From positions 406,914 through 470,913 of the forward strand of contig DHZH01000002.1 in NCBI GenBank assembly GCA_002414385.1: a stretch of 64,000 nucleotides of DNA, in the 5' to 3' direction. Shown here piece by piece: positions 28,796-39,379 of this stretch; positions within the stretch are counted from its first letter, which is position 1, and each line of letters begins with the position of its first letter. The DNA is from Gammaproteobacteria bacterium UBA5109. GTDB lineage: Bacteria; Pseudomonadota; Gammaproteobacteria; Pseudomonadales; Pseudohongiellaceae. The notes under the pieces are model-generated. The model was not told the origin of the DNA. It saw nothing but the letters and a program-made list of their open reading frames with translations, and made no database searches. A program made the position numbers and the translations under genes.

Positions 28796-30682
28796 ATGTT
28801 TGAAGAAATTCCACAGGAGCGGCCGCAAACACCGCTGCTGGATAGCATTAATGCCCCCGCCGATCTGCGTGAACTTGAAGCAGAACAACTGGAGCAACTG
28901 GCAACAGAGTTGCGGGCCTTTCTGTTGTATTCAGTTGGTAAATCCGGCGGCCATTTTGGAGCCGGCCTTGGCGTGGTGGAACTGACCATCGCCCTGCATT
29001 ATGTTCTGAATACTCCTGATGACAGACTGGTCTGGGATGTCGGACACCAGTCCTACCCGCACAAAATCCTCACAGGTCGCCGTGACCGCATGCATACCAT
29101 CCGGCAAAAAGACGGGCTGGCAGCTTTCAACAACCGTGAAGAAAGTGAATACGATACCTTCGGTGTTGGTCATTCAAGCACATCCATTTCTGCCGCGCTG
29201 GGAATGATGGTAGCCAAACGTAAAAGTGGCAGTGAGCATAAAATTGTTGCTGTCATTGGTGACGGCGCCATGACTGCCGGAATGGCATTTGAGGCCCTGA
29301 ATCATGCCTGTGAACTGGATGACGATATTCTGGTCATTCTTAATGACAACAACATGTCGATATCCAAAAATGTCGGCGGGCTGTCAAGCTACTTTGCCCG
29401 GATGTGGGCCAGCAAACCGTACAATTTTCTGCGTTCCGGGAGCAAGAAAGTGTTATCGAAAGTGCCTCAGGCCTGGAAAGCAGCACATCGTGCCGAGGAA
29501 TACATGAAAGGCATGGTGTCGCCAGCGACAATTTTTGAAGAACTGGGCTTTAATTATTTTGGCCTGATAGACGGACATGACATTGATGGCCTGGTCGATA
29601 TTCTTGAAAATATCAGGAATCTCAAAGGGCCGTTGTTATTGCATGTGGTAACCCAGAAAGGCAAAGGGTATCTGCCCGCTGAGGAAGATCCTTATGGTAT
29701 GCATGCGCTCAACAAGCTGGTGCCTGAGGAAGAAAAGCAGCAGCCGGCAAGTAACATTCCGACCTACTCAAAAATATTTGGTCAGTGGCTTTGTGAGACG
29801 GCTGAACAGGATGCCAGGCTTATGGCGATCACACCGGCAATGGGTGAGGGTTCAGGCATGCGTGAGTTTGAGGAAAAATTTCCAGAACGCTTCTTTGATG
29901 TTGCTATTGCCGAGCAGCATGCGCTGACCTTTGCAGCAGGTATGGCCTGTGACGGGCTCAAACCGGTTGTCGCCATTTATTCAACATTCCTGCAGCGGGC
30001 ATATGATCAGTTGATTCATGATATTGCCCTGCAGGATCTTGATGTGCTGTTTGCCATCGACCGTGCAGGTCTGGTTGGTGCAGACGGACCGACACATGCT
30101 GGCAGTTTTGATTTGAGTTATCTGCGCTGTATTCCCAATCTGGTAGTCATGGCGCCCAGTGATGAAAATGAAATGCGTCATATGCTTTATACCGGTTTTC
30201 AACTTCCCGGTCCTGTGGCTGTGCGTTATCCACGTGGCAGCGCAAGAGGGTTTGAGCTGGATGATGAGCTACACCAGCTGGAGCCAGGTAAAGCGATTAT
30301 TCGTCGGCACGGAAAACAGGTAGCGATTCTGGTTTTTGGTACTTTACTCAAGAATACGATCAAGTGTGCGGAAGAACTGAATGCAACCCTGGTCGATATG
30401 CGTTTTGTCAAGCCGCTGGACGAGGCGCTGATTGCCGAGCTGGCAGCGGAATATGATTTACTGGTAACGGTAGAAGAAAATGTGATCAAGGGCGGTGCAG
30501 GCTCTGCAGTCAATGAATTCCTTGAAGCAAGAGGCCTGAGTGTGCCAATACTGAACCTGGGCTTGCCCGACAAGTTTCTCGGACATGGAAAAGTTGCGGA
30601 GCTACTGGCAGATTGCGGCCTCGACGAAGCAGGAATCAGTCAGTCTGTAAGCAAAAGACTGCAACAGCTCAAGCAAGCCTAA
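28796..30682 (+). CDS. dxs: 1-deoxy-D-xylulose-5-phosphate synthase
   Basis: 628 aa. The TPP motif region [15 protein letters not shown] and DXS-like sequence throughout. Confidence 0.96.
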
Positions 30683-31680
30683 AGCAGTTTCGAGCCAAAC
30701 TGAATTTCACCATCCGGAATTTGCGGAACAGGTTCCTCGACAGGCGCTGATGTAGCAGCGCTGATATTGGTTTCCCAACTGTCTTCCGAGTATTCAGAAA
30801 TAGCCAGGAAAGCCAGCCGACCACTGTTATCTTCCGAGTAGGTGCCGACATAAATATCATACTCACCTGATTCGGGTGACGAGAAATAATATCCTCCGTT
30901 CAGGTTTTCCAGGCTGGAATTGTCATCATTGCAAAACCAGGAACCGCCGGGAGACTGAATGGAAATCGTCGTATCGTAGTCTGCACTGGTATAGATTCCC
31001 AACCCCAGACTACTGGTAGTACTGGGAGAATAATTAAGGCGATAAGTCGGTCCGTCACTAACATAACCGGCACAACCGTTACTTAAGTTATCTGCATCGT
31101 TGGGTCCACCAGCTACCACTTCAAAAACATAAGGATCAGGAAGGAACCCCCCGGACAGGCTGATTTCCGGGGAAGCTGCCTGTAAATCTGTTTCCCAGCT
31201 GCTTTCAGAAAACTCAGTGATTGCCAGAATCGCATTTCTGTTGGTATTGCTTTCTGAATAGGTTCCCACCCAGATGTCATACTGCCCGGATGCCGGGTCA
31301 CTGAAGTAATAGCCTGAATTCAGGTTATTCAGATCGCTGTGGTCATCATTACAATACCAGTCACCGTTAGGGTTATTGATCAGCAGGGTAGTATCGTATT
31401 CGGCATTGACATAAATACCCAGGCCGAGGCTGCCAGGGCTGAAATTCAAACGGTAAGTAGGTTCGTCAGTGATATAGCCATTACAGGAAGAATCAGCATC
31501 ATCGGCATCAAAGCTGCCCCCGGCCAGTACAGAAATGACGTTCGGGTCTGGAGTAAATCCGCCACTAAGTGATCCCGTTCCAAAACGCGGAGTGAGAGAA
31601 AAATCCTGGGCCATTGCCATAGAGCAAACAAAGGTACCAGTTGTAATAAGTAATAATCTGCTTTTATGAAAAGTCATCAC
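30679..31680 (-). CDS. Secreted protein made of two tandem ~140-aa PPC-like modules (island gene 8 of the minus operon)
   Basis: 333 aa with signal peptide [26 protein letters not shown]. Two internal repeats lie at roughly 31186..31608 and 30750..31185. Both share GGF.PDP....V.AGG..DA......C.GY..D.PTYRLN(F/Y)SP...LGLGIY...DYDTT..I..P.G.W.CNDD...L.NLN.GYYF..P.SG.YDI.VGTYSE. The start is 15 nt after the kinase stop. Confidence 0.75.
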
Positions 31681-31695
31681 TGAACCTCTATGGTC

Positions 31696-33702
31696 TTAAC
31701 GGGCAAGTCGAAAACCGGAGCTGGAACTGGCCTGAGTGGCCGGCATCCAGTTGCGGAAAGAAATTCGGCCCTGATGTTCACTGCTGTTCCAGCCACCACC
31801 GCGCAGTATTCGGCTGCAGCCACTTTCTCCGGTCCAGGCAGAACCATCATCCGGGGCACCGTTATAATTGTTACGAGCACAATCCTGTACCCATTCCCAG
31901 GCATTCCCGTGCATGTCAAACAGACCCCAGTCATTGGCAGGATAATTCATGACTTCCGCAGTACCGGCTTCACCACAGTTATTCATTTTTGCCAGGGCAC
32001 ACTGATGGGTATTACCCCAGTGATACTGAGCGGTGCTGCCGGCACGAGCAGCATATTCCCATTCGGCTTCTGTAGGGAGTCGATACCCGGCTCCGGTTTG
32101 ACCGTTAAGCCAGTCAATATAGGTTTGTACCTGATTCCAGTTGGCGTTGGTTACCGGCCGCAATTCCCTGCGCCCTGTACCCTGGTCATTGAGTTGGGCA
32201 CAAATACCAGCCTGCACACAGGAATCCCATTGCGCAAAAGTGACCTCATGTTCCATCAATTCAAAGTTATCGATGAATACTGTATGTACCGGTAGTTCAT
32301 CGCTGTCCCCGGTACCGGAGAGATCGCCCATATCAAAAAAACCGGAGGGGATGGAAATCATCTGGCCAAGATCAGCAATTGCCTGACTCAGTTGTTCCTG
32401 TTGCTGTTGTTGGCGCTGCTGGTTTTGTTGTTGCTGTTCCAGCCGCTCCTGTTCCAGTCTTTCCTGCTCGGCCTGTTCCGCTTCAGCCTGGAGTCTTTCC
32501 TGTTCGAGGCGCTCGGCTTCAGCCTGTTCCGCAACTTCCAGGGCAGCAGCAGCTTCTGCTGCAGCTTCCGCTGCAAGCTCTTCGGCACGCTGGCGCTCAG
32601 CTTCCGCCTGTAAACGCAATTCTTCGTTTTGCTGGTAAACCGTGAATCCGTAATAGCCTCCACCGGCAAGTATTATCAGCAATACTGCGGCAATGGCGTA
32701 CTTCCCGGCAGAGGATTGCTGTCCGGCAGGCTTGCTTACGGTGCTGGCTGCTGCTTTTTCCGGCTTTGCCTGTGGCGGGGGAGCAGATGCAGCAGCCTGT
32801 TCATTACCGTCAAGAAAACCGAGGACATCTTCGACAGACTGGAAGCGGTCTTCCTCATTAAGGCAGAGACATTTATCAATTGCCTTGAGTAAATTTTCTG
32901 AATATTTACCTTTGCCCAGTTCGAGCGCGGAAGTCATCGGGTCCGGCCGGTTACGGGTTACTGCACTCATGCGATTTTCTACCTGGGGCGGGTTCTGACT
33001 GGCGATAATGCGCCACATGACACCGCCAATGGCATAAATGTCAGTCCAGGGGCCGAGATTGCCGTCACTCTCTACCTGCTCAATAGCAGCATAGCCCGGA
33101 CTGTATGGCGCCATGGATTTACTGTGTTCGGTAAAATTCTGCTTGGCTGCACCGAAGTCGATTAATACCGGCTGTTCGTCGCTGCGGCGAATAAAAATAT
33201 TGCCCGGCTTGATATCGCGGTGCAGGACGTGCTGTTTATGTACAACACCGAGGCCTTTAAGCAAGGGAGTAATGATGCGACGCAGTTCATCTTCGGAAAA
33301 GCTCTGCTGGTTCTTTTCCCGGCCGCGAATCAGGTCCGATAGGGGCAGGCCATCTTCAAAGCTCATGACCAGGTAGGCTGTGCCGTTTTCTTCGATAAAG
33401 TCCTGGCAGTTAACAATGTTTGGATGATTTTCAAACTGTACCAGTTGCTTTGCTTCCGCCAGGAAGCGGTCAAGACCAGTCTGAAAATCGACCTGTTCAC
33501 GGGTACCAAGGGGGTGCACGGTACCGGATTCGCGTGTCGCCAGTTCCTGAGGCAGATATTCCTTGATTGCCAGCCAGTTTCCGAGGCGCATATGCTGGGC
33601 TTTATAGACAATGCCGAATCCGCCATAACCGAGCACGCTTTCGATACGGTATTGATTGATAACTGTGCCTTTCGGCAAGGCTAATCGATGTTCGGTATCC
33701 AT
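31696..33702 (-). CDS. Hanks-type Ser/Thr protein kinase, then TM, periplasmic coiled coil and FGE-sulfatase (SUMF1-type) domain
   Basis: 668 aa. Kinase motifs are GYGGFGIVY (aa 25-33), AIKE (K47), HRDIKPGN (aa 161-168), DFG (aa 182-184) and SPGYAAIEQ. The TM is YAIAAVLLIILAGGGYYGFTVY (aa 335-356). An E/Q/A/R-rich coil spans aa 357-445. The C-terminal domain (31699..32364) carries RLPTEAEWEYAARAG, GLFDMHGNAWEWVQD and RILRGGGW...SGFRLAR, typical of the FGE-sulfatase family. Confidence 0.9.
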   Translation of the reverse strand: MDTEHRLALPKGTVINQYRIESVLGYGGFGIVYKAQHMRLGNWLAIKEYLPQELATRESGTVHPLGTREQVDFQTGLDRFLAEAKQLVQFENHPNIVNCQDFIEENGTAYLVMSFEDGLPLSDLIRGREKNQQSFSEDELRRIITPLLKGLGVVHKQHVLHRDIKPGNIFIRRSDEQPVLIDFGAAKQNFTEHSKSMAPYSPGYAAIEQVESDGNLGPWTDIYAIGGVMWRIIASQNPPQVENRMSAVTRNRPDPMTSALELGKGKYSENLLKAIDKCLCLNEEDRFQSVEDVLGFLDGNEQAAASAPPPQAKPEKAAASTVSKPAGQQSSAGKYAIAAVLLIILAGGGYYGFTVYQQNEELRLQAEAERQRAEELAAEAAAEAAAALEVAEQAEAERLEQERLQAEAEQAEQERLEQERLEQQQQNQQRQQQQQEQLSQAIADLGQMISIPSGFFDMGDLSGTGDSDELPVHTVFIDNFELMEHEVTFAQWDSCVQAGICAQLNDQGTGRRELRPVTNANWNQVQTYIDWLNGQTGAGYRLPTEAEWEYAARAGSTAQYHWGNTHQCALAKMNNCGEAGTAEVMNYPANDWGLFDMHGNAWEWVQDCARNNYNGAPDDGSAWTGESGCSRILRGGGWNSSEHQGRISFRNWMPATQASSSSGFRLAR

Positions 33703-33767
33703 GATGCTTTCTGCAACCTGCCTCTTGTTTAACTGATTATATTGTCACATTTTTTAATTGTTACTAT

Positions 33768-34634
33768 TTAGATAGTTACAATGGCCATGATAATGCTCGC
33801 CAGCATGGACTGCCCGCTGGTGCTGTCAATAAATTCACCCTGACCACTTTGTGCCAGACGTCGTAAATATTCCTCAGCCTGATCACTGCCAACCATTACG
33901 GTGGACAGGTAATGTTCCGGGCTTGTGGTGGCGCTGAAATTCTGTGCGGTAGCAAAGGTTGTGTTCAGCAATTCCGGGTAGGCCGGCGCATCTGTCACTA
34001 CAATTATGTAGCGTCGCTGACTTTGCGGCCGCCAGTTCATTACTACGGCCTGATTGAGAGCAGCCGACAGGGCCTCCGGGTTGTCATCATTTGAGCCGCC
34101 ACCGAGACCCATATTGGCTTCCAGCTGATTGATGAAACTTTCAATCTGGGCAAAGTTGGTGGTCGGATATATCTGCTGGAAATTAAGCGGTTGATCCCAG
34201 AGTCGGTCGCCATACCAGACGATACCAATCCCGACTGACGGTGATAGACGGTCCAGCACTGTGGCCAGGTCGGCAATCTGCTGTTTCATCTGATCAATGT
34301 ATTCACCCATGCTGCCGGAAACATCCAGACAGATGACAATGTCCAGTTCGGGAATCCTGATGCGAGCCAGTTCAGAAGAAAGTTCACCGGCTTCCTGCTG
34401 AGACTGGGACAAATCACTTTGTGTCTGGGACAGTTCTTCCTGGGTTTGTTCCAGTTCCTGCTGTGCCTGTTCCAGCGCTTCGGCTACTTCCGCAACCAGT
34501 TCCGGGGAATCACCAGTGTTGGGGAAAAAGGGCAGGGCGGCAATTGTCAGCAACATAAAAGCACCCAGTGCCGAGGCAAACAGATCAAGTGCCGACATGC
34601 TGAAAATATTTATTTCGCGAGAGCGAATTTTCAC
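33768..34634 (-). CDS. vWA-domain protein with an N-terminal MotB/TolR/ExbD-like TM helix and a juxtamembrane coiled coil
   Basis: 288 aa. The N-terminus reads MKIRSREINIFSMSALDLFASALGAFMLLTIAALP, with basic residues and then a TM carrying Asp17. A Q/E-rich coil spans aa 43-90. The vWA MIDAS is DVSGSM (D104-S106-S108; nt 34311..34325), with a later VVTDAP. It overlaps the upstream gene stop by 4 nt. Confidence 0.85.
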   Translation of the reverse strand: MKIRSREINIFSMSALDLFASALGAFMLLTIAALPFFPNTGDSPELVAEVAEALEQAQQELEQTQEELSQTQSDLSQSQQEAGELSSELARIRIPELDIVICLDVSGSMGEYIDQMKQQIADLATVLDRLSPSVGIGIVWYGDRLWDQPLNFQQIYPTTNFAQIESFINQLEANMGLGGGSNDDNPEALSAALNQAVVMNWRPQSQRRYIIVVTDAPAYPELLNTTFATAQNFSATTSPEHYLSTVMVGSDQAEEYLRRLAQSGQGEFIDSTSGQSMLASIIMAIVTI

Positions 34635-36565
34635 TCCTGTTTCTCCAGCAGATTGACCTGATAGGTCACCAGGCCGACTTTAAGTGAATCTCCGGCATTC
34701 AGTTCATACTGCTGGCCGGGACTTAATACTGAGCCATTGATGGCGGTACCGTTGGCACTTTGCAGATCTTCAACATAAATTTTGTGATCCCGAACCATGA
34801 CGCGCAAATGTTTACGCGATACGGTTTCGATATTGAGTACATAGTCAGCATGTTGTGCCGAGCGACCGATAAGCTGACCGTTTTCTGACCGGATCAGCGC
34901 ATTACCGTTAATTTTCAGGCGTGACTCGGCGCCCTGTTCATCTTTGCCGAGTAAGACAATGTCGGGAAATTCAGCGGATGCCTTCTGTAGTTGTTCTTCA
35001 ATTTCCTGGCTCTGCTGCTTCACTTGCTGAATATTTTTTTCTGCTTCGTCCTGGCTTCGGCGACGTTTGCGGACCTGCATGACGACAAAGCCAAACAGGG
35101 CAATAACAACTATGCCAAAACCGCTCCACTGATACATGCGATTGCGCGCATCGACTTCTTGCTGGCGTGCTGCCTCTGCAAGCGCTTCTTCTCGTTCTTG
35201 TGCTTCCTGCTCGAGCTGTTCCTGTCTTTCCTGCAATTCAAGTTGTTCGGCTTCAGCCTGGGCAATGGCTTCCTGGCTGGCTTCAAGCTCCGCTTCCCGG
35301 GCCTGTAGTTCTTCCAGTCTTGCCTGATTTTCTGCCGCCAGTGCTTCCTGTTCGGCCAGTAATTCTTCTGTTGCTTCCTGGAGTCGCAGTCTTTCCTCTT
35401 CGAGAATTTCCTGTTCTTCAAACAAATCAATCAGAATTGCTTCCTGTTCCCTGATCTTGTCTTCTGCCAGTGCCAGAAGCTCGGCTTCTGACAGACAAAC
35501 ATCAAAGGCTTCATAGTAATCAACATTATTACTGGTCAGGAAAGTCCTGATACTGTCCAGGTTGGCACTGAATGCAAAATCCTGGTCTGGTCGCAAACGG
35601 TTGGAGAGCACCGGACTGGAATGCTGGCTGATACCGATCATTTCACCGCAATTATTTAACAGGGCAGCACCGTATTCCCCATCATCAGCCAGCGCGGTAT
35701 GACGAATCTGGCTTATGCCCTGATCAGTTTCAACAATACTCTGCAGGACACCCTGACGGTTTTCCTGCGCCAGGCCCAGAGCAATATTTCTGCCGGTTTC
35801 GGGGAAATCGTAGGATAGATTTATCGGACTGCCTTCAATACCGTTAACGGTTAACAATGCCAGACCGGCAGTTTCATCAGTGGCAGTAATACTGGCAACC
35901 AGAGAGGCACCATTCTGCGGGTTTTCGATAATCCACTGGTCACCCTGGGCGACCAGTGCTTCATTGGTAATAACCATATTATCTGTGACCAGGGTAGCCA
36001 GTCCGGTCTGCACTTCATTACCATTATTCAACACTCTCAGGCTGAAGATGTTGCTGGAAAAATTTGGCGAAAGGTCTATTTGCCAGTTGTCTTCGGGAGA
36101 TTCGGTGATAGCCAGAACCGCATCACCAAAAACATCTTCTTCAAAATAGGCACCTACCCAGATGTTGTATTCGCCGCTTTGCGGGTCATCAAAATAATAA
36201 CCGGCATTGAGATTTGCCAGGTTGTAATTATCATCATTACAGACCCACTCCCCGTCAGGAGTATTGATTAAAATTGTGGTATCCAGTTCCGAGCTTGTAT
36301 AAATTCCCAGCCCCCAGCCCGCGGCCTGGTAATCAAGGCGGTAATCAGGAGCATCAGAGATATAACCGTAGCAACTCGAATCTGCGTTGCCGGCATCAAG
36401 CTCGCCCCCAATGGCGACTTCAACAAGCTGTGGATCAGGCAGAAAACCGGCACTTAAATCGGTGCTGCCATAGTTAGGATCCATCCTGACATCCTGTGCA
36501 ACAGCCAGGCTACTTAAAACAGTGCCGCTTATCACAGTTAACACTATCAGTGGTCTAGTTTTCAT
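34631..36565 (-). CDS. Membrane-anchored protein: signal peptide, PPC-like module, degenerate trypsin-like domain, coiled coil, TM, cytoplasmic FHA
   Basis: I prefer the start MKTRPLIVLTVISGTVLSSLAVA-QD at 36565, which overlaps PP2C by 11 nt; the ORF-track start at 36682 would overlap it by 128 nt. The PPC-like module is ~36071..36496. The trypsin-2-like region has VITNEALV, ETAGLALLTV and GEYGAALLN. The E/Q/A coil is ~35140..35485 and the TM is WSGFGIVVIALFGFVVMQV. The FHA reads LIGRSAQHADYVLNIETVSRKHLRVMVRDHKIYVEDLQSANGTAINGSVL. Confidence 0.8.
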   Translation of the reverse strand: MKTRPLIVLTVISGTVLSSLAVAQDVRMDPNYGSTDLSAGFLPDPQLVEVAIGGELDAGNADSSCYGYISDAPDYRLDYQAAGWGLGIYTSSELDTTILINTPDGEWVCNDDNYNLANLNAGYYFDDPQSGEYNIWVGAYFEEDVFGDAVLAITESPEDNWQIDLSPNFSSNIFSLRVLNNGNEVQTGLATLVTDNMVITNEALVAQGDQWIIENPQNGASLVASITATDETAGLALLTVNGIEGSPINLSYDFPETGRNIALGLAQENRQGVLQSIVETDQGISQIRHTALADDGEYGAALLNNCGEMIGISQHSSPVLSNRLRPDQDFAFSANLDSIRTFLTSNNVDYYEAFDVCLSEAELLALAEDKIREQEAILIDLFEEQEILEEERLRLQEATEELLAEQEALAAENQARLEELQAREAELEASQEAIAQAEAEQLELQERQEQLEQEAQEREEALAEAARQQEVDARNRMYQWSGFGIVVIALFGFVVMQVRKRRRSQDEAEKNIQQVKQQSQEIEEQLQKASAEFPDIVLLGKDEQGAESRLKINGNALIRSENGQLIGRSAQHADYVLNIETVSRKHLRVMVRDHKIYVEDLQSANGTAINGSVLSPGQQYELNAGDSLKVGLVTYQVNLLEKQE

Positions 36566-37469
36566 CGCCCATGCTCTCATTATCTGCGTTTTCATCATTA
36601 TGCTCATCGGCATTATCTGAATCTGTCGGAGTTTCGTTATTGTTTTTGCCACGCAGGGTCTGTACATGAGCCTGGTCACCAAGAATGCGAATAATATTCA
36701 GGGTCGAGTTGTCCTGGGAAGGGCGCTGGTGCTCAGTGACTTTCTGTAAAATGATTTCGACCAGTTTTTCAGCATCACTCAAGGAATTCCCCTGTTCGGC
36801 AGCAAGCAGGCTCTGTAATTCTTCAACTGAGCAGGTTTCCACTCCATCACTGGCCAGGATAAATATATCACCTGCCTCTACACTGAATGTTTCATCAGGC
36901 AAATCAACCAGCTTGATGTCCCGGCCCAGGACTGCTTCCAGCAACTGGCTTCTTTCCGGCGAAGTTGCGGCTTCTTCAGCACTGATAAGACCTTGTTCCA
37001 CCTGTTTGGACAGTTCTTCGGCCATGGAGTGATTTTCATTAAGCCGGCTTAGCTTACCCTGACGATATAACCACAAGGGGCTGTCTCCGACGCTGATCCA
37101 TTGCACGGCATTGCCGTCAAAGATGAGAGCCAGAAAGGTAGAGCCCATGCCCTCCATTTCCGGGTTTTGTTTGACGTATTCGTAAACGGCCAGGTTTGCT
37201 GCACTCAGACCTTCCAGAAAACGGTCTTTGATTTCTTCTTTCTCTGAGGCAACAAAGCTTTCACGGAAAGTACTTACTACCAGCTGACTGGCTTCGGCAC
37301 CACCGACATGCCCGCCCATGCCATCGGCGAGAATATGCAGTGAAAAACCATTGGGCCAGCTGACGATAGCTGCCCGGTCCTGCTGGGATTTACGGCTGCC
37401 AATTATCTGACCCCAGGCTGAATCGGTGGTCAGGTTCGCAAGCTCTTTGGCACCCTCAGCAGCCATCAT
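36555..37469 (-). CDS. PP2C-family Ser/Thr phosphatase (soluble) with an acidic C-terminal tail
   Basis: 304 aa. Motifs are SRKSQQDRAAI, ILADGMGGHVGGAEAS, ILASDGV and QDNSTLNIIRI. The tail is rich in D/E/N. Confidence 0.9.
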   Translation of the reverse strand: MMAAEGAKELANLTTDSAWGQIIGSRKSQQDRAAIVSWPNGFSLHILADGMGGHVGGAEASQLVVSTFRESFVASEKEEIKDRFLEGLSAANLAVYEYVKQNPEMEGMGSTFLALIFDGNAVQWISVGDSPLWLYRQGKLSRLNENHSMAEELSKQVEQGLISAEEAATSPERSQLLEAVLGRDIKLVDLPDETFSVEAGDIFILASDGVETCSVEELQSLLAAEQGNSLSDAEKLVEIILQKVTEHQRPSQDNSTLNIIRILGDQAHVQTLRGKNNNETPTDSDNADEHNDENADNESMGDEN

Positions 37470-37477
37470 GCACCTGC

Positions 37478-38197
37478 TTATTCTTCATCCCAAGTGAAGT
37501 TTTCACCGCATAGCGGAACAAATAAAAGTGTGGTTTCACCCAGTGTGATACGGCTACCAGGGCTTAACTGGGCAGGAGCAAGCACCGGGCTGTTATTCAG
37601 GTAGGCCAGATTGGTACCGGAACCCTGCTGAATATAAAAGCTCAGGCCGCGCGGATCAAAAGTCAGAATGGCATGATTGGCACGGGAAATCTGCTCATCC
37701 CCGAAATCCAGTTTGACGCGTTCGGTTGGGCCACGGCCTATACTGTTCTGGCCGTTACCCAGCTTGAGATAATTGCCTTTTCCGGGACCGTCGATAACAA
37801 CCAGCCAGCCAACCACCGGATCGGCCATGGCATCAACCGGGCCGGACTGGGGTTCTTCCTGGGTATGGGGCTGCCGGGCTTTGCTGTGGCCTCCGGCTAT
37901 TACAGTAGCAGGCTCATCGCTTGCAGGAGCAGTTGATGATGCTGCCTGGGTTTCTTTCGAGCTGCCAGAGCTGTCTCCGGCTTTAACGGTAGGTGGCTCA
38001 TCAGCAAAAAGGCTGCCACCGGGAGACTGCTGATTGACTTCAGTTGGCGCATCGTCGTTATTGCCAGGACTTGATGTATTATCAAACAGGGAAGTCGGTG
38101 CTTCACTTCCTGCATTGCCTGACGACTGCTTGGATTTTTCATGCATGACGGACGGGACATCTACCGGTACACCGTCTGGGCCTCGTTTAACTGCCAT
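37478..38197 (-). CDS. FHA-domain protein with a long Ser/Thr/Pro-rich disordered N-terminal half
   Basis: 239 aa. The C-terminal FHA reads GWLVVIDGPGKGNYLKLGNGQNSIGRGPTERVKLDFGDEQISRANHAILTF...GTNLAYLNNSPV. The N-terminal ~130 aa are low complexity and S/T/P/A/G/D-rich. Confidence 0.85.
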   Translation of the reverse strand: MAVKRGPDGVPVDVPSVMHEKSKQSSGNAGSEAPTSLFDNTSSPGNNDDAPTEVNQQSPGGSLFADEPPTVKAGDSSGSSKETQAASSTAPASDEPATVIAGGHSKARQPHTQEEPQSGPVDAMADPVVGWLVVIDGPGKGNYLKLGNGQNSIGRGPTERVKLDFGDEQISRANHAILTFDPRGLSFYIQQGSGTNLAYLNNSPVLAPAQLSPGSRITLGETTLLFVPLCGENFTWDEE

Positions 38198-38223
38198 AAT
38201 GATCCTCCGGGAAAAATTTCAGT

Positions 38224-39039
38224 TTATTTTTCTTCATAAAGTCGGTTGATTAAATTATCCATACAATACTGGCCGGTGTTGTTGAGTGCGGATTCTTCCC
38301 GTCCCTGCGCCAGGTGCATAAAAAACACCAGAATTGCAGACATAACCAGCGCCAGCAGGGTCGTATTGAACGCCACACCAAGTTTGGTGGTAAGCACGCC
38401 CATCCAGACGCGAATTGCATCACTTTGTCCCAGGTCTGGCATATCGGATGCTTCCGACAATGACAGGGCGATACCGATAACTGTTCCGATAAAGCCGATA
38501 GTCGGAATCAGCCAGACCAGGTAACGAACCATGTTGTATTTCAGGTCGATCTCATGCTGCATCAACTCCAGACTGGAATTCATCAGGTTGTTGGACTGGT
38601 CTATGGACTGGCTGTTCTGGAACTGCAGAATAATACGGTGAATCAGCCGTGGCAGGAAAAAATAACGGGTATGCTTGTTATCAACCACTGAGCTGAAAAT
38701 CGGAACCAGCTCTTTGGCACGCAGCATTGTCGTATCATCTTCCGGCAACAGGCCGCGTTTGAGCTGGGCAATTTCTTTCTTGCCGCGGTCAAAACGGACC
38801 CAGAGTTCACCAAAGCCGATCATGAACAGCAGCCACATGATATTCTGGATGGTCAAGGGATAGGGGAAGACGTCTGTGGAGCGGTCGAAAAGAATATCTG
38901 CGAGTACCAGCTCTCCGACAACATCTTCAGACGGTGAGCTTATCAGTGACATGATGGCAATGAAAACCGCACCGATCATGATAGCAACCAGGGCAACAAT
39001 TACACGGTAGGTTGTTTCCTGTTGTTCAAGATTATTCAT
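38224..39039 (-). CDS. MotA/TolQ/ExbB-family proton-channel protein with no cognate MotB/ExbD/TolR gene adjacent
   Basis: 271 aa. It has two N-terminal TMs, a ~90-aa cytoplasmic loop, then the family signature LIPTIGFIGTVIGIALSL ... LGVAFNTTLLALVMSAILVFF. Confidence 0.85.
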   Translation of the reverse strand: MNNLEQQETTYRVIVALVAIMIGAVFIAIMSLISSPSEDVVGELVLADILFDRSTDVFPYPLTIQNIMWLLFMIGFGELWVRFDRGKKEIAQLKRGLLPEDDTTMLRAKELVPIFSSVVDNKHTRYFFLPRLIHRIILQFQNSQSIDQSNNLMNSSLELMQHEIDLKYNMVRYLVWLIPTIGFIGTVIGIALSLSEASDMPDLGQSDAIRVWMGVLTTKLGVAFNTTLLALVMSAILVFFMHLAQGREESALNNTGQYCMDNLINRLYEEK

Positions 39040-39100
39040 AGCTTAATTCCGCTTTCTCAGGCAACGAAAGGCTTTCCCTGGCTGCCGGACAAGTTATGGA

Positions 39101-39379
39101 TCAGTGCTTAATCGAATGCACCAGCTGCCGGACCTGAACTTCTTCTTTGCCGAGCAGCAGGATGTCACTTTCATTAACAAAGCCCTGTTTCATTAATTCC
39201 CAGGATTCGCCTTTCCTTATGCGGGTACCAGCTGTGGAATTAGCATCTATCAGGTAGTATTTGCCATCATCAGTACGTGTCAGCTCCAGATGTTTGCGGG
39301 AAACACTCTGGCCATTGATCTGGATATCAGCATCTGAAGCTCTACCGACTGAAAAAGTTCTGAATGACATGCATACCAC
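39101..39379 (-). CDS. Stand-alone FHA-domain protein, first gene of the minus operon
   Basis: 92 aa, with an alternative ATG at 39370 giving MSFRTF. The FHA motif reads FSVGRASDADIQINGQSVSRKHLELTRTDDGKYYLIDANSTAGTRI. Confidence 0.85.
   Translation of the reverse strand: MVCMSFRTFSVGRASDADIQINGQSVSRKHLELTRTDDGKYYLIDANSTAGTRIRKGESWELMKQGFVNESDILLLGKEEVQVRQLVHSIKH

Follow-up and report, generated by a model that had tools for sequence, protein, structure and literature searches.

The window, a 64,000-nt stretch of contig DHZH01000002.1 from Gammaproteobacteria bacterium UBA5109, encodes a membrane protein, P0001, whose periplasmic head is a dead relative of a serine protease. As modelled, the head is an HtrA/DegS-type chymotrypsin fold and no chance match. 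It is predicted to be unable to carry out serine-protease chemistry, because His, Asp and Ser of the catalytic triad are all substituted. A long coiled coil and a single transmembrane (TM) helix connect the head to a cytoplasmic FHA domain. By analogy, P0001 is probably the non-catalytic binding or adaptor head of a phospho-regulated envelope complex.

Structure and catalytic positions of P0001

The features of the gene and the protein are as follows.

34631..36565, minus strand: whole gene of P0001, 644 aa (open reading frame call; the N-termini of orthologues fit the ATG at 36565)
36494..36565, minus strand: Sec-type signal peptide, residues 1-24 (MKTRPLIVLTVISGTVLSSLAVAQ), recognised by eye from the sequence
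36083..36493, minus strand: N-terminal PPC-like jelly-roll β-sandwich, residues 25-161 (Foldseek; predicted local distance difference test, pLDDT, 89.9)
35498..36058, minus strand: dead HtrA/DegS-type (S1C) chymotrypsin-fold domain, residues ~170-356 (Pfam, phmmer, AlphaFold2, Foldseek)
35957..35959, minus strand: Ala203 at the catalytic His position (TN-E-A-LV against TN-K-H-VI in DegS; alignments)
35864..35866, minus strand: Gly234 (GGT) at the catalytic Asp position (A-G-LALL against D-LAVL; alignments; invariant in orthologues)
35672..35674, minus strand: Tyr298 (TAC) at the nucleophile Ser position (GE-Y-GAA against GN-S-GGA; alignments; Tyr or Phe in orthologues)
35648..35650, minus strand: Cys306 of the family-invariant NNC motif (family alignment)
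35495..35497, minus strand: Cys357, invariant, directly N-terminal of the stalk helix (family alignment and model)
35138..35494, minus strand: periplasmic Glu/Gln/Ala-rich coiled-coil stalk, residues 358-476 (model and heptad analysis)
35075..35134, minus strand: single TM helix, residues ~478-497, with RKRRR after it on the cytoplasmic side (sequence)
34646..34930, minus strand: cytoplasmic FHA domain (Pfam match to residues 566-631)

The gene lies in a minus-strand open reading frame spanning 34631..36682, in which the ATG at 36565 gives the protein of 644 aa. At its start, the gene shares 11 nt with the end of the upstream PP2C gene; its own stop codon occupies 34631..34633. The open reading frame, this start and the three codon positions named for the triad are exactly as claimed in a preliminary description of the window. 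The order of domains is signal peptide, PPC-like β-sandwich, HtrA/DegS-type domain, coiled coil, TM helix and FHA domain.

The trypsin-like domain, first recognised by eye, is real. Specifically, Pfam Trypsin_2 (PF13365) matches residues 192-312 with 28.4 bits against a cut-off of 27.6 (E 3.2e-6), phmmer finds DegS at E 3.5e-4, and searches of NCBIfam and the PDB also pick DegS. The AlphaFold2 model of residues 23-375, built from a 79-sequence alignment, has a mean pLDDT of 88.9, with ~95 within the protease-like domain. Structural comparison of this model with the PDB by Foldseek upholds the chymotrypsin fold: HtrA1, DegS, Rv3671c and MucD are matched at E 2.5e-11 to 3.6e-10 with probability 1.00 and target-normalised template-modelling scores of 0.70–0.76 over ~200 columns. 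The S1C-NTF2 ectodomain of RsgI9 (PDB 7sjy) is matched at E 1.8e-10, with a lower target-normalised score of 0.47. A PDZ domain has no match in P0001 at E ≤ 1 in Pfam, and a coiled coil follows the protease-like domain. The host genome, of 2.7 Mb, contains eight Trypsin_2 loci, among which P0001 is the weakest with 32 bits; the seven canonical genes score 48–128 bits.

Alignments place other residues at all three catalytic positions. In the HMMER alignment with DegS, ITNKHVI is aligned with ITNEALV, which puts Ala203 in the column of the catalytic His, DLAVL is aligned with GLALL (Asp to Gly234), and GNSGGAL is aligned with GEYGAAL (Ser to Tyr298). In the MAFFT family alignment, the canonical His/Asp/Ser proteases all share the same three columns. 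BLASTP against P0172, a live homologue of the same architecture, confirms the placement of Gly234 and Tyr298 and pairs Cys306 and Cys357 with the two cysteines of that protein. Thus, the substitutions of Asp by Gly and of Ser by Tyr, as proposed from inspection, agree with the DegS, family and P0172 alignments. The proposal for the His box, which had put Glu at the catalytic position, stands in part: His is substituted, and the GAA codon of Glu202 lies exactly at 35960..35962, but the His column is Ala203, one residue away. A further placement of the His column, at Leu204, was given by BLASTP against P0172 and was rejected; it breaks the shared T-N motif, and both HMMER and MAFFT give Ala203. 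There is no His anywhere in VITNEALVAQGD, the His-box region of P0001.

The nucleophile/oxyanion loop has changed as well. In place of GNSGGP, P0001 has GEYGAA, and the wider family has E(F/Y)GAP. P0001 shares fold and profile with S1C/HtrA proteins but not their triad, oxyanion loop or PDZ domain; it is therefore not a member of the catalytically defined S1C. Alternative catalytic residues were sought through sequence conservation, and none is conserved across the family. H289, H315, S313, S317, D209, D230 and D327 are invariant in close orthologues and vary freely in the wider family, and no alternative His/Asp/Ser set is conserved across 79 aligned members, consistent with the original view of a dead protease.

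The topology proposed at the outset, a head joined through a coiled coil and a TM helix to a cytoplasmic FHA domain, is borne out by the FHA match (E 7e-15), the one TM helix with its RKRRR, and the 119-residue heptad segment. The head is assigned to the periplasm because of the signal peptide and the positive-inside RKRRR, and P0001 is predicted to be a type-I inner-membrane protein. The stalk keeps one heptad register throughout all 119 residues. In the AlphaFold2 model its helix begins at residue 360, and the stalk would be ~18 nm long if it is one continuous helix. Among orthologues, conservation within P0001 is highest in the TM helix (0.82 identity) and lowest in the signal peptide. PF00498 matches residues 566-631 with 55.6 bits against a cut-off of 20.7 (E 7.2e-15), and FHA domains in the PDB match the tail at E 5e-5. 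The phospho-Thr-binding signature (G567-R568, S583-R-K-H586, N605-G606) is intact; its residues are invariant in orthologues and at least 90% conserved across the 79 family members.

Conservation and origin of the FHA-tailed family

The substitutions at the triad are conserved in orthologues. In 15 orthologues, 59–68% identical and from Haliea- and SAR86-labelled metagenome-assembled genomes (MAGs), position 203 is Ala (rarely Gly or Asp), position 234 is Gly, and position 298 is Tyr or Phe. The loop GEYGAALLNNC is nearly invariant among them. Conservation was measured as column entropy and not as the ratio of non-synonymous to synonymous substitution, because synonymous sites would be saturated at ~65% identity. 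Over 13 orthologues of 59–68% identity, the mean column entropy is 0.63 for the dead domain, 0.60 for the FHA domain, 0.75 for the N-terminal module, and 0.81 for the cytoplasmic linker. Conservation of the dead domain is close to that of the FHA domain, which argues for function and not decay. In public databases, the orthologues are annotated just as 'FHA domain-containing protein'.

A phmmer search with the protease-like domain against 1.84 billion representatives (50% clustering) gave 160 matches at E ≤ 1e-3, of which 113 combine an FHA tail with the Cys306 signature. The majority of these are 450–520 aa long and lack the N-terminal module. P0001 has the architecture, the loss of Ser, the NNC motif and the Cys pair by which the family is recognised, and P0285, a distant member, aligns with it end to end at E 3e-33. 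The nucleophile position of the 113 FHA-tailed members is Tyr in 37, Phe in 26, Trp in 8, Ala in 8, His in 7 and Ser in 5, and Leu and Val are also tolerated in the family. The catalytic His is retained in 12 of these members and the Asp in 55. That aromatic residues are favoured where the nucleophile once stood suggests selection and not random drift.

Cys306 and Cys357 are both present in 107 of the 113 FHA-tailed members. Across the 79 aligned members, Asn304, Cys306 and Cys357 are the sole invariant residues of the head. Cys306 sits in the hairpin LLNNCGE, and from its conservation together with Cys357 the two probably form a disulfide that locks the head onto the top of the stalk.

The family has live relatives. 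In the FastTree tree, three FHA-tailed members that keep the full His-Asp-Ser triad are basal, next to canonical proteases. They are followed by a His-Asp-Tyr clade and then by clades without His, and the Ala-Gly-Tyr clade of P0001 is nested in a Gly-Asp-Phe clade. A search with one live member found a sister family of live Trypsin-TM-FHA proteins with 227 matches at E ≤ 1e-20. The rare intact-triad members and this large sister family point to a live protease as the ancestor of the dead family. The live proteins (P0172, P0121) share with P0001 the architecture, the two cysteines and a cluster of kinase, vWA, FHA, MotA/ExbB and PP2C genes. They differ from it in keeping His-Asp-Ser and the GNSGGP loop and in having shorter stalks, with ~400–470 aa in total, and the protease domain of P0172 is 23% identical to that of P0001. 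They are annotated as 'trypsin-like peptidase domain-containing protein' or 'FHA domain-containing protein'.

Members in which His and Asp are kept and Tyr stands as nucleophile (AAHLV ... DLALL ... GYGGPLLNECGE) are P0089, P0099, P0102, P0110, P0112, P0117, P0138 and others. This His-Asp-Tyr sub-clade may represent an intermediate in evolution or a functional state of its own. A second pairing of trypsin and FHA domains occurs in the host genome outside the window, at G000:C8:157230-159479 (locus L015 7231..9479, minus strand). In L015, a separate operon, the live His/Asp/Ser Trypsin_2 protease P0286 (425 aa) overlaps P0287 (329 aa) by 16 nt, and in P0287 an N-terminal FHA domain is combined with several TM helices.

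The N-terminal module was described initially as PPC-like. This holds at the level of the fold and not at the level of the profile. Specifically, no Pfam family, PPC (PF04151) included, matches residues 24-161 or two paralogous repeats at E ≤ 10. The module is modelled at pLDDT 89.9, and Foldseek matches it weakly, at fold level only, to the C-terminal sandwiches of the subtilases KP-43 and SubHal (E 1e-4). Other Foldseek matches are the ColG collagen-binding domain 1nqj, with a target template-modelling score of 0.71 and a root-mean-square deviation of 3.4, and PliG. The module is 53–54% identical to the two repeats of a 333-aa protein of the same gene island (30679..31680). Because the orthologue P0016 (495 aa, 66% identical) has no PPC-like module, the module was gained or lost recently within the clade, and it appears from these comparisons to be a recent accessory.

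The gene cluster and its distribution

The P0001 gene is the fifth in an eight-gene operon within the window, and a divergent operon lies on the opposite strand. The neighbouring genes are as follows.

36555..39379, minus strand: upstream operon genes, encoding FHA (92 aa), MotA/ExbB-like (271 aa), FHA with a Ser/Thr-rich head (239 aa) and PP2C (304 aa) proteins
30679..34634, minus strand: downstream operon genes as a block
33768..34634, minus strand: TM-coiled coil-vWA protein, 288 aa
31696..33702, minus strand: Ser/Thr kinase-TM-coiled coil-FGE-sulfatase-like protein, 668 aa
30679..31680, minus strand: secreted protein with two PPC-like repeats, 333 aa
39506..41242, plus strand: divergent operon, PP2C-TM-FTP/PepSY protein, 578 aa
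41242..43503, plus strand: divergent operon, live M4 metallopeptidase-TM-FHA protein, 753 aa, HELAH present

The domains of the M4-TM-FHA neighbour, including HELAH in its sequence, are confirmed, in agreement with the parallel that had been drawn between this active protein and P0001.

The cluster is conserved as a unit. The upstream operon genes are conserved in loci L002–L005 and L011–L014. A core cluster of FHA, MotA/ExbB, FHA, PP2C and dead-protease genes, usually with vWA and Ser/Thr kinase genes, recurs in L005, L011, L012 and L013; its carriers include two further lineages of the order and a distant 5.3-Mb genome (L013). Halioxenophilus sp. WMMB6 has the core cluster with a head 33% identical to that of P0001. 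In the tblastn matrix, genes 1-7 are conserved in the complete clusters except for vWA in L012, and MotA/ExbB is the most conserved gene of the cluster, with 47–91% identity. On the truncated contig of L014, neither the dead paralogue nor the kinase is present.

Each of the complete clusters examined has, in addition, a gene for a live protease-TM-FHA protein, M4 here and S1 elsewhere. All gammaproteobacterial clusters examined carry M4-TM-FHA; L013 has the live S1-TM-FHA protein P0172 instead. In L013 (7467..10371), the dead paralogue P0285 (His/Asn/Phe) lies directly before P0172 (His/Asp/Ser), and the gene order is kinase, P0285, P0172, vWA, FHA, MotA, FHA and PP2C-like. Thus, from M4-TM-FHA in the gammaproteobacterial clusters and from P0172 beside P0285 in L013, a dead head is paired with a live protease of the same layout.

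The family is rare, with a patchy distribution. In a genome scan, carriers were 6 of 201 genomes of the order, in 3 of 112 genera, and none of 400 other genomes of the class or of four other genomes of the same family carried it. A locus search with a 20-sequence alignment gave four loci. P0001 has no match in PADLOC-DB, and its neighbours match there just generic kinase, PP2C and MotA models.

Several further variations were observed. The FTP/PepSY domains, of propeptide type and normally ahead of the M4 peptidase, are on a separate protein with a TM helix and a cytoplasmic PP2C domain, and this split is kept in L005 and L012. The kinase ectodomain is FGE-sulfatase-like in the window (31696..33702), PEGA and FGE in L011 (13324..15639), and PEGA/CarboxypepD_reg-like in L005 (12313..14283) and L012 (6993..8993). 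An OmpA-family gene is added in the L005 and L012 clusters. The vWA protein carries a DVSGSM motif of the metal ion-dependent adhesion site. Its start, MKIRSREINIFSMSALDLFASALGAFMLL, resembles by eye the N-terminal TM motif of ExbD/TolR (EIN..P.iDv.lvLL), with Asp in the helix, and Pfam gives no ExbD match for the protein. From this resemblance, the vWA protein may be an ExbD-like partner of the MotA/ExbB gene product. In tblastn, L002 and L004, both from the SAR86 MAG NORP41 (NVWI01000004.1 and NVWI01000001.1), agree exactly in coordinates and identities for each of the eleven island genes. The island is thus seemingly duplicated on two contigs, which could be assembly or binning redundancy or a true duplication.

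Proposed function and its alternatives

A binding or sensor role had been thought likely for the dead fold from the start. This inferred role gains strength from two observations, the purifying conservation that the dead domain shows and its conserved pairing with a live protease. In such a role, the dead head would keep the ancestral substrate-binding cleft and serve as the ligand- or substrate-binding arm of a sensor or adaptor. The FHA tail would dock onto phospho-threonines that the kinase of the cluster makes and its PP2Cs remove. Phosphorylation would then bring the dead head and the live protease together, or keep them apart, in one membrane complex, and the conserved TM helix would probably contact the MotA/ExbB-type channel.

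P0001 might, beyond this, be a dedicated subunit of an undescribed envelope machine, which we offer as a tentative and rather unlikely extension. In this machine, the MotA/ExbB channel and the ExbD/TolR-like vWA protein would power or gate coiled-coil arms, one with a live protease (M4 or S1) and one with a dead one. Phosphorylation by the kinase and dephosphorylation by PP2C, read by up to five FHA domains, would time assembly; the dead head would capture the target and the live head would cut it.

Several points weigh against the adaptor function. The binding role of the head is drawn from analogy, and we infer both the retention of the cleft and the Cys306-Cys357 disulfide from sequence. 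Because the live partner in the window is M4 and not a paralogue, a pseudoenzyme-enzyme heteromer in an HtrA-type trimer cannot apply to this cluster. The vWA gene is missing from L012 (G128), so the composition of the cluster is not fixed. Finally, the tree is a single FastTree run with the root assumed on canonical proteases, and its branching order is tentative.

P0001 may instead be a TolA/TonB-like structural stalk of a MotA/ExbB-type proton-driven motor, in which the head is a knob anchoring a peptidoglycan or outer-membrane partner and the FHA domain regulates engagement of the motor. This would fit with MotA/ExbB as the most conserved gene of the cluster, with the TM helix as the most conserved segment of P0001, with a helix of ~18 nm, a periplasm-spanning length, and with a weak similarity of residues 385-538 to TolA (NCBIfam, E 0.044). 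GltG and GltJ of the Myxococcus gliding motor also combine an FHA domain, a TM helix and a periplasmic arm, and P0001 has weak matches to them. However, its topology is opposite to that of TolA/TonB, with an N-terminal head exported by a signal peptide, and neither a TonB- or TolA-type C-terminal domain nor an SHLS motif was detected. Anchoring alone also does not explain why the fold of a protease was kept and an aromatic residue selected at the nucleophile site. We therefore consider a purely structural stalk unlikely; a stalk function is compatible with the adaptor role and does not exclude it. The tandem of dead and live paralogues in L013, and the live protease-TM-FHA gene in every complete cluster examined, could also be explained by a negative regulator or decoy, whose head would draw substrates away from the live protease or trap an activating peptide, and so keep the system off until it is released by phosphorylation. 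Decoy roles of inactive enzymes in conflict systems have been discussed (PMC7159879). Yet the live enzyme in the window is a metalloprotease with an unrelated cleft, so that shared substrate recognition is not expected a priori. A decoy seems improbable to us, and sequence alone cannot separate it from an adaptor.

Residual activity and decay are both far less probable. A head that acts as a hydrolase through non-canonical residues, such as Tyr298, His289, His315, Ser313 and Ser317, could account for the invariance of several His, Ser and Asp residues in the 15 close orthologues and for the sub-clade that keeps His and Asp with Tyr as nucleophile. These candidates are not conserved family-wide, where just Asn304, Cys306 and Cys357 are invariant; the nucleophile position accepts Phe, Trp, Ala, Leu and Val; and the general base and the Asp are both lost in the P0001 clade, which leaves such a hydrolase very improbable. 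The marginal Pfam score (28.4 against 27.6) and the drift of the catalytic positions across the family would be expected of a functionless, decaying relic, with stalk, TM helix and FHA domain alone of importance. We find this hardly credible for a domain whose conservation in orthologues matches that of the FHA domain, which folds at pLDDT ~95, and which persists, invariant motif and Cys pair included, in at least 113 clusters (50% identity).

The closest known counterparts of P0001 resemble it in part. HtrA, DegS and DegP (MEROPS S1C) have the same double β-barrel, the same motif frame (TNxHV, DLALL, GNSGGPLLN..GE.IGI) and a periplasmic location, with a membrane tether in DegS. P0001 differs from them in lacking the triad residues and PDZ and in having a cytoplasmic FHA domain, the invariant Cys pair and NNC; unlike DegS, it is anchored C-terminally via a long coiled coil and not by an N-terminal TM helix. 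Haptoglobin, HGF, azurocidin and insect serine-protease homologues are chymotrypsin-fold proteins that lack the triad and act by binding. These eukaryotic proteins are secreted members of the unrelated S1A lineage and are uncoupled from phospho-signalling. For the membrane-proximal half, the TM helix and FHA domain of P0001 match the model of FhaB/FipA (Rv0019c) at E 4.8e-11, far below the cut-off of that model. The logic of the cluster can be likened to the threonine-phosphorylation pathway of type VI secretion (T6SS; PpkA, PppA, Fha1), in which a receptor Ser/Thr kinase, PP2C and FHA docking control the assembly of an envelope machine. However, FhaB/FipA and the T6SS FHA proteins are without a protease-like ectodomain, and the P0001 cluster is without T6SS genes and has vWA as a separate protein, not as part of the kinase. 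RsgI9 of Clostridium thermocellum has, like P0001, an S1C-like extracytoplasmic head on a single-pass signalling protein, and its protease-like domain is described as cellulose-binding (PMC12203970). It differs in being Gram-positive, in having an anti-sigma factor/regulated-proteolysis output instead of FHA/Ser-Thr phosphorylation, and in lacking a coiled-coil stalk. By analogy, P0001 would work most like an RsgI9 sensor head joined to an FhaB/FipA-type TM-FHA module.

A literature search found no published description of the FHA-tailed dead-protease family or of its cluster. The vWA/MoxR 'ternary' conflict systems were considered and set aside, as the paper on them (PMC7159879) does not describe the P0001 cluster. 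A 2008 survey lists just one FHA-FHA-Tryp protein. P0001 combines a pseudo-protease with FHA signalling, and the surrounding cluster could represent a new system in its own right.

Few studies have dealt with bacterial pseudo-proteases, and only for a few systems, such as the T6SS pathway, is it understood how FHA/Ser-Thr-kinase signalling works across the Gram-negative envelope. The family forms a natural series from His-Asp-Ser through His-Asp-Tyr to Ala-Gly-Tyr within one architecture and cluster, a tractable case of an enzyme turning into a binding or signalling module. In the apparently uncharacterised, conserved cluster, periplasmic proteases are coupled to a MotA/ExbB-type channel and to eukaryote-like phospho-signalling, and Halioxenophilus sp. 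WMMB6 is a cultivable carrier for genetics.

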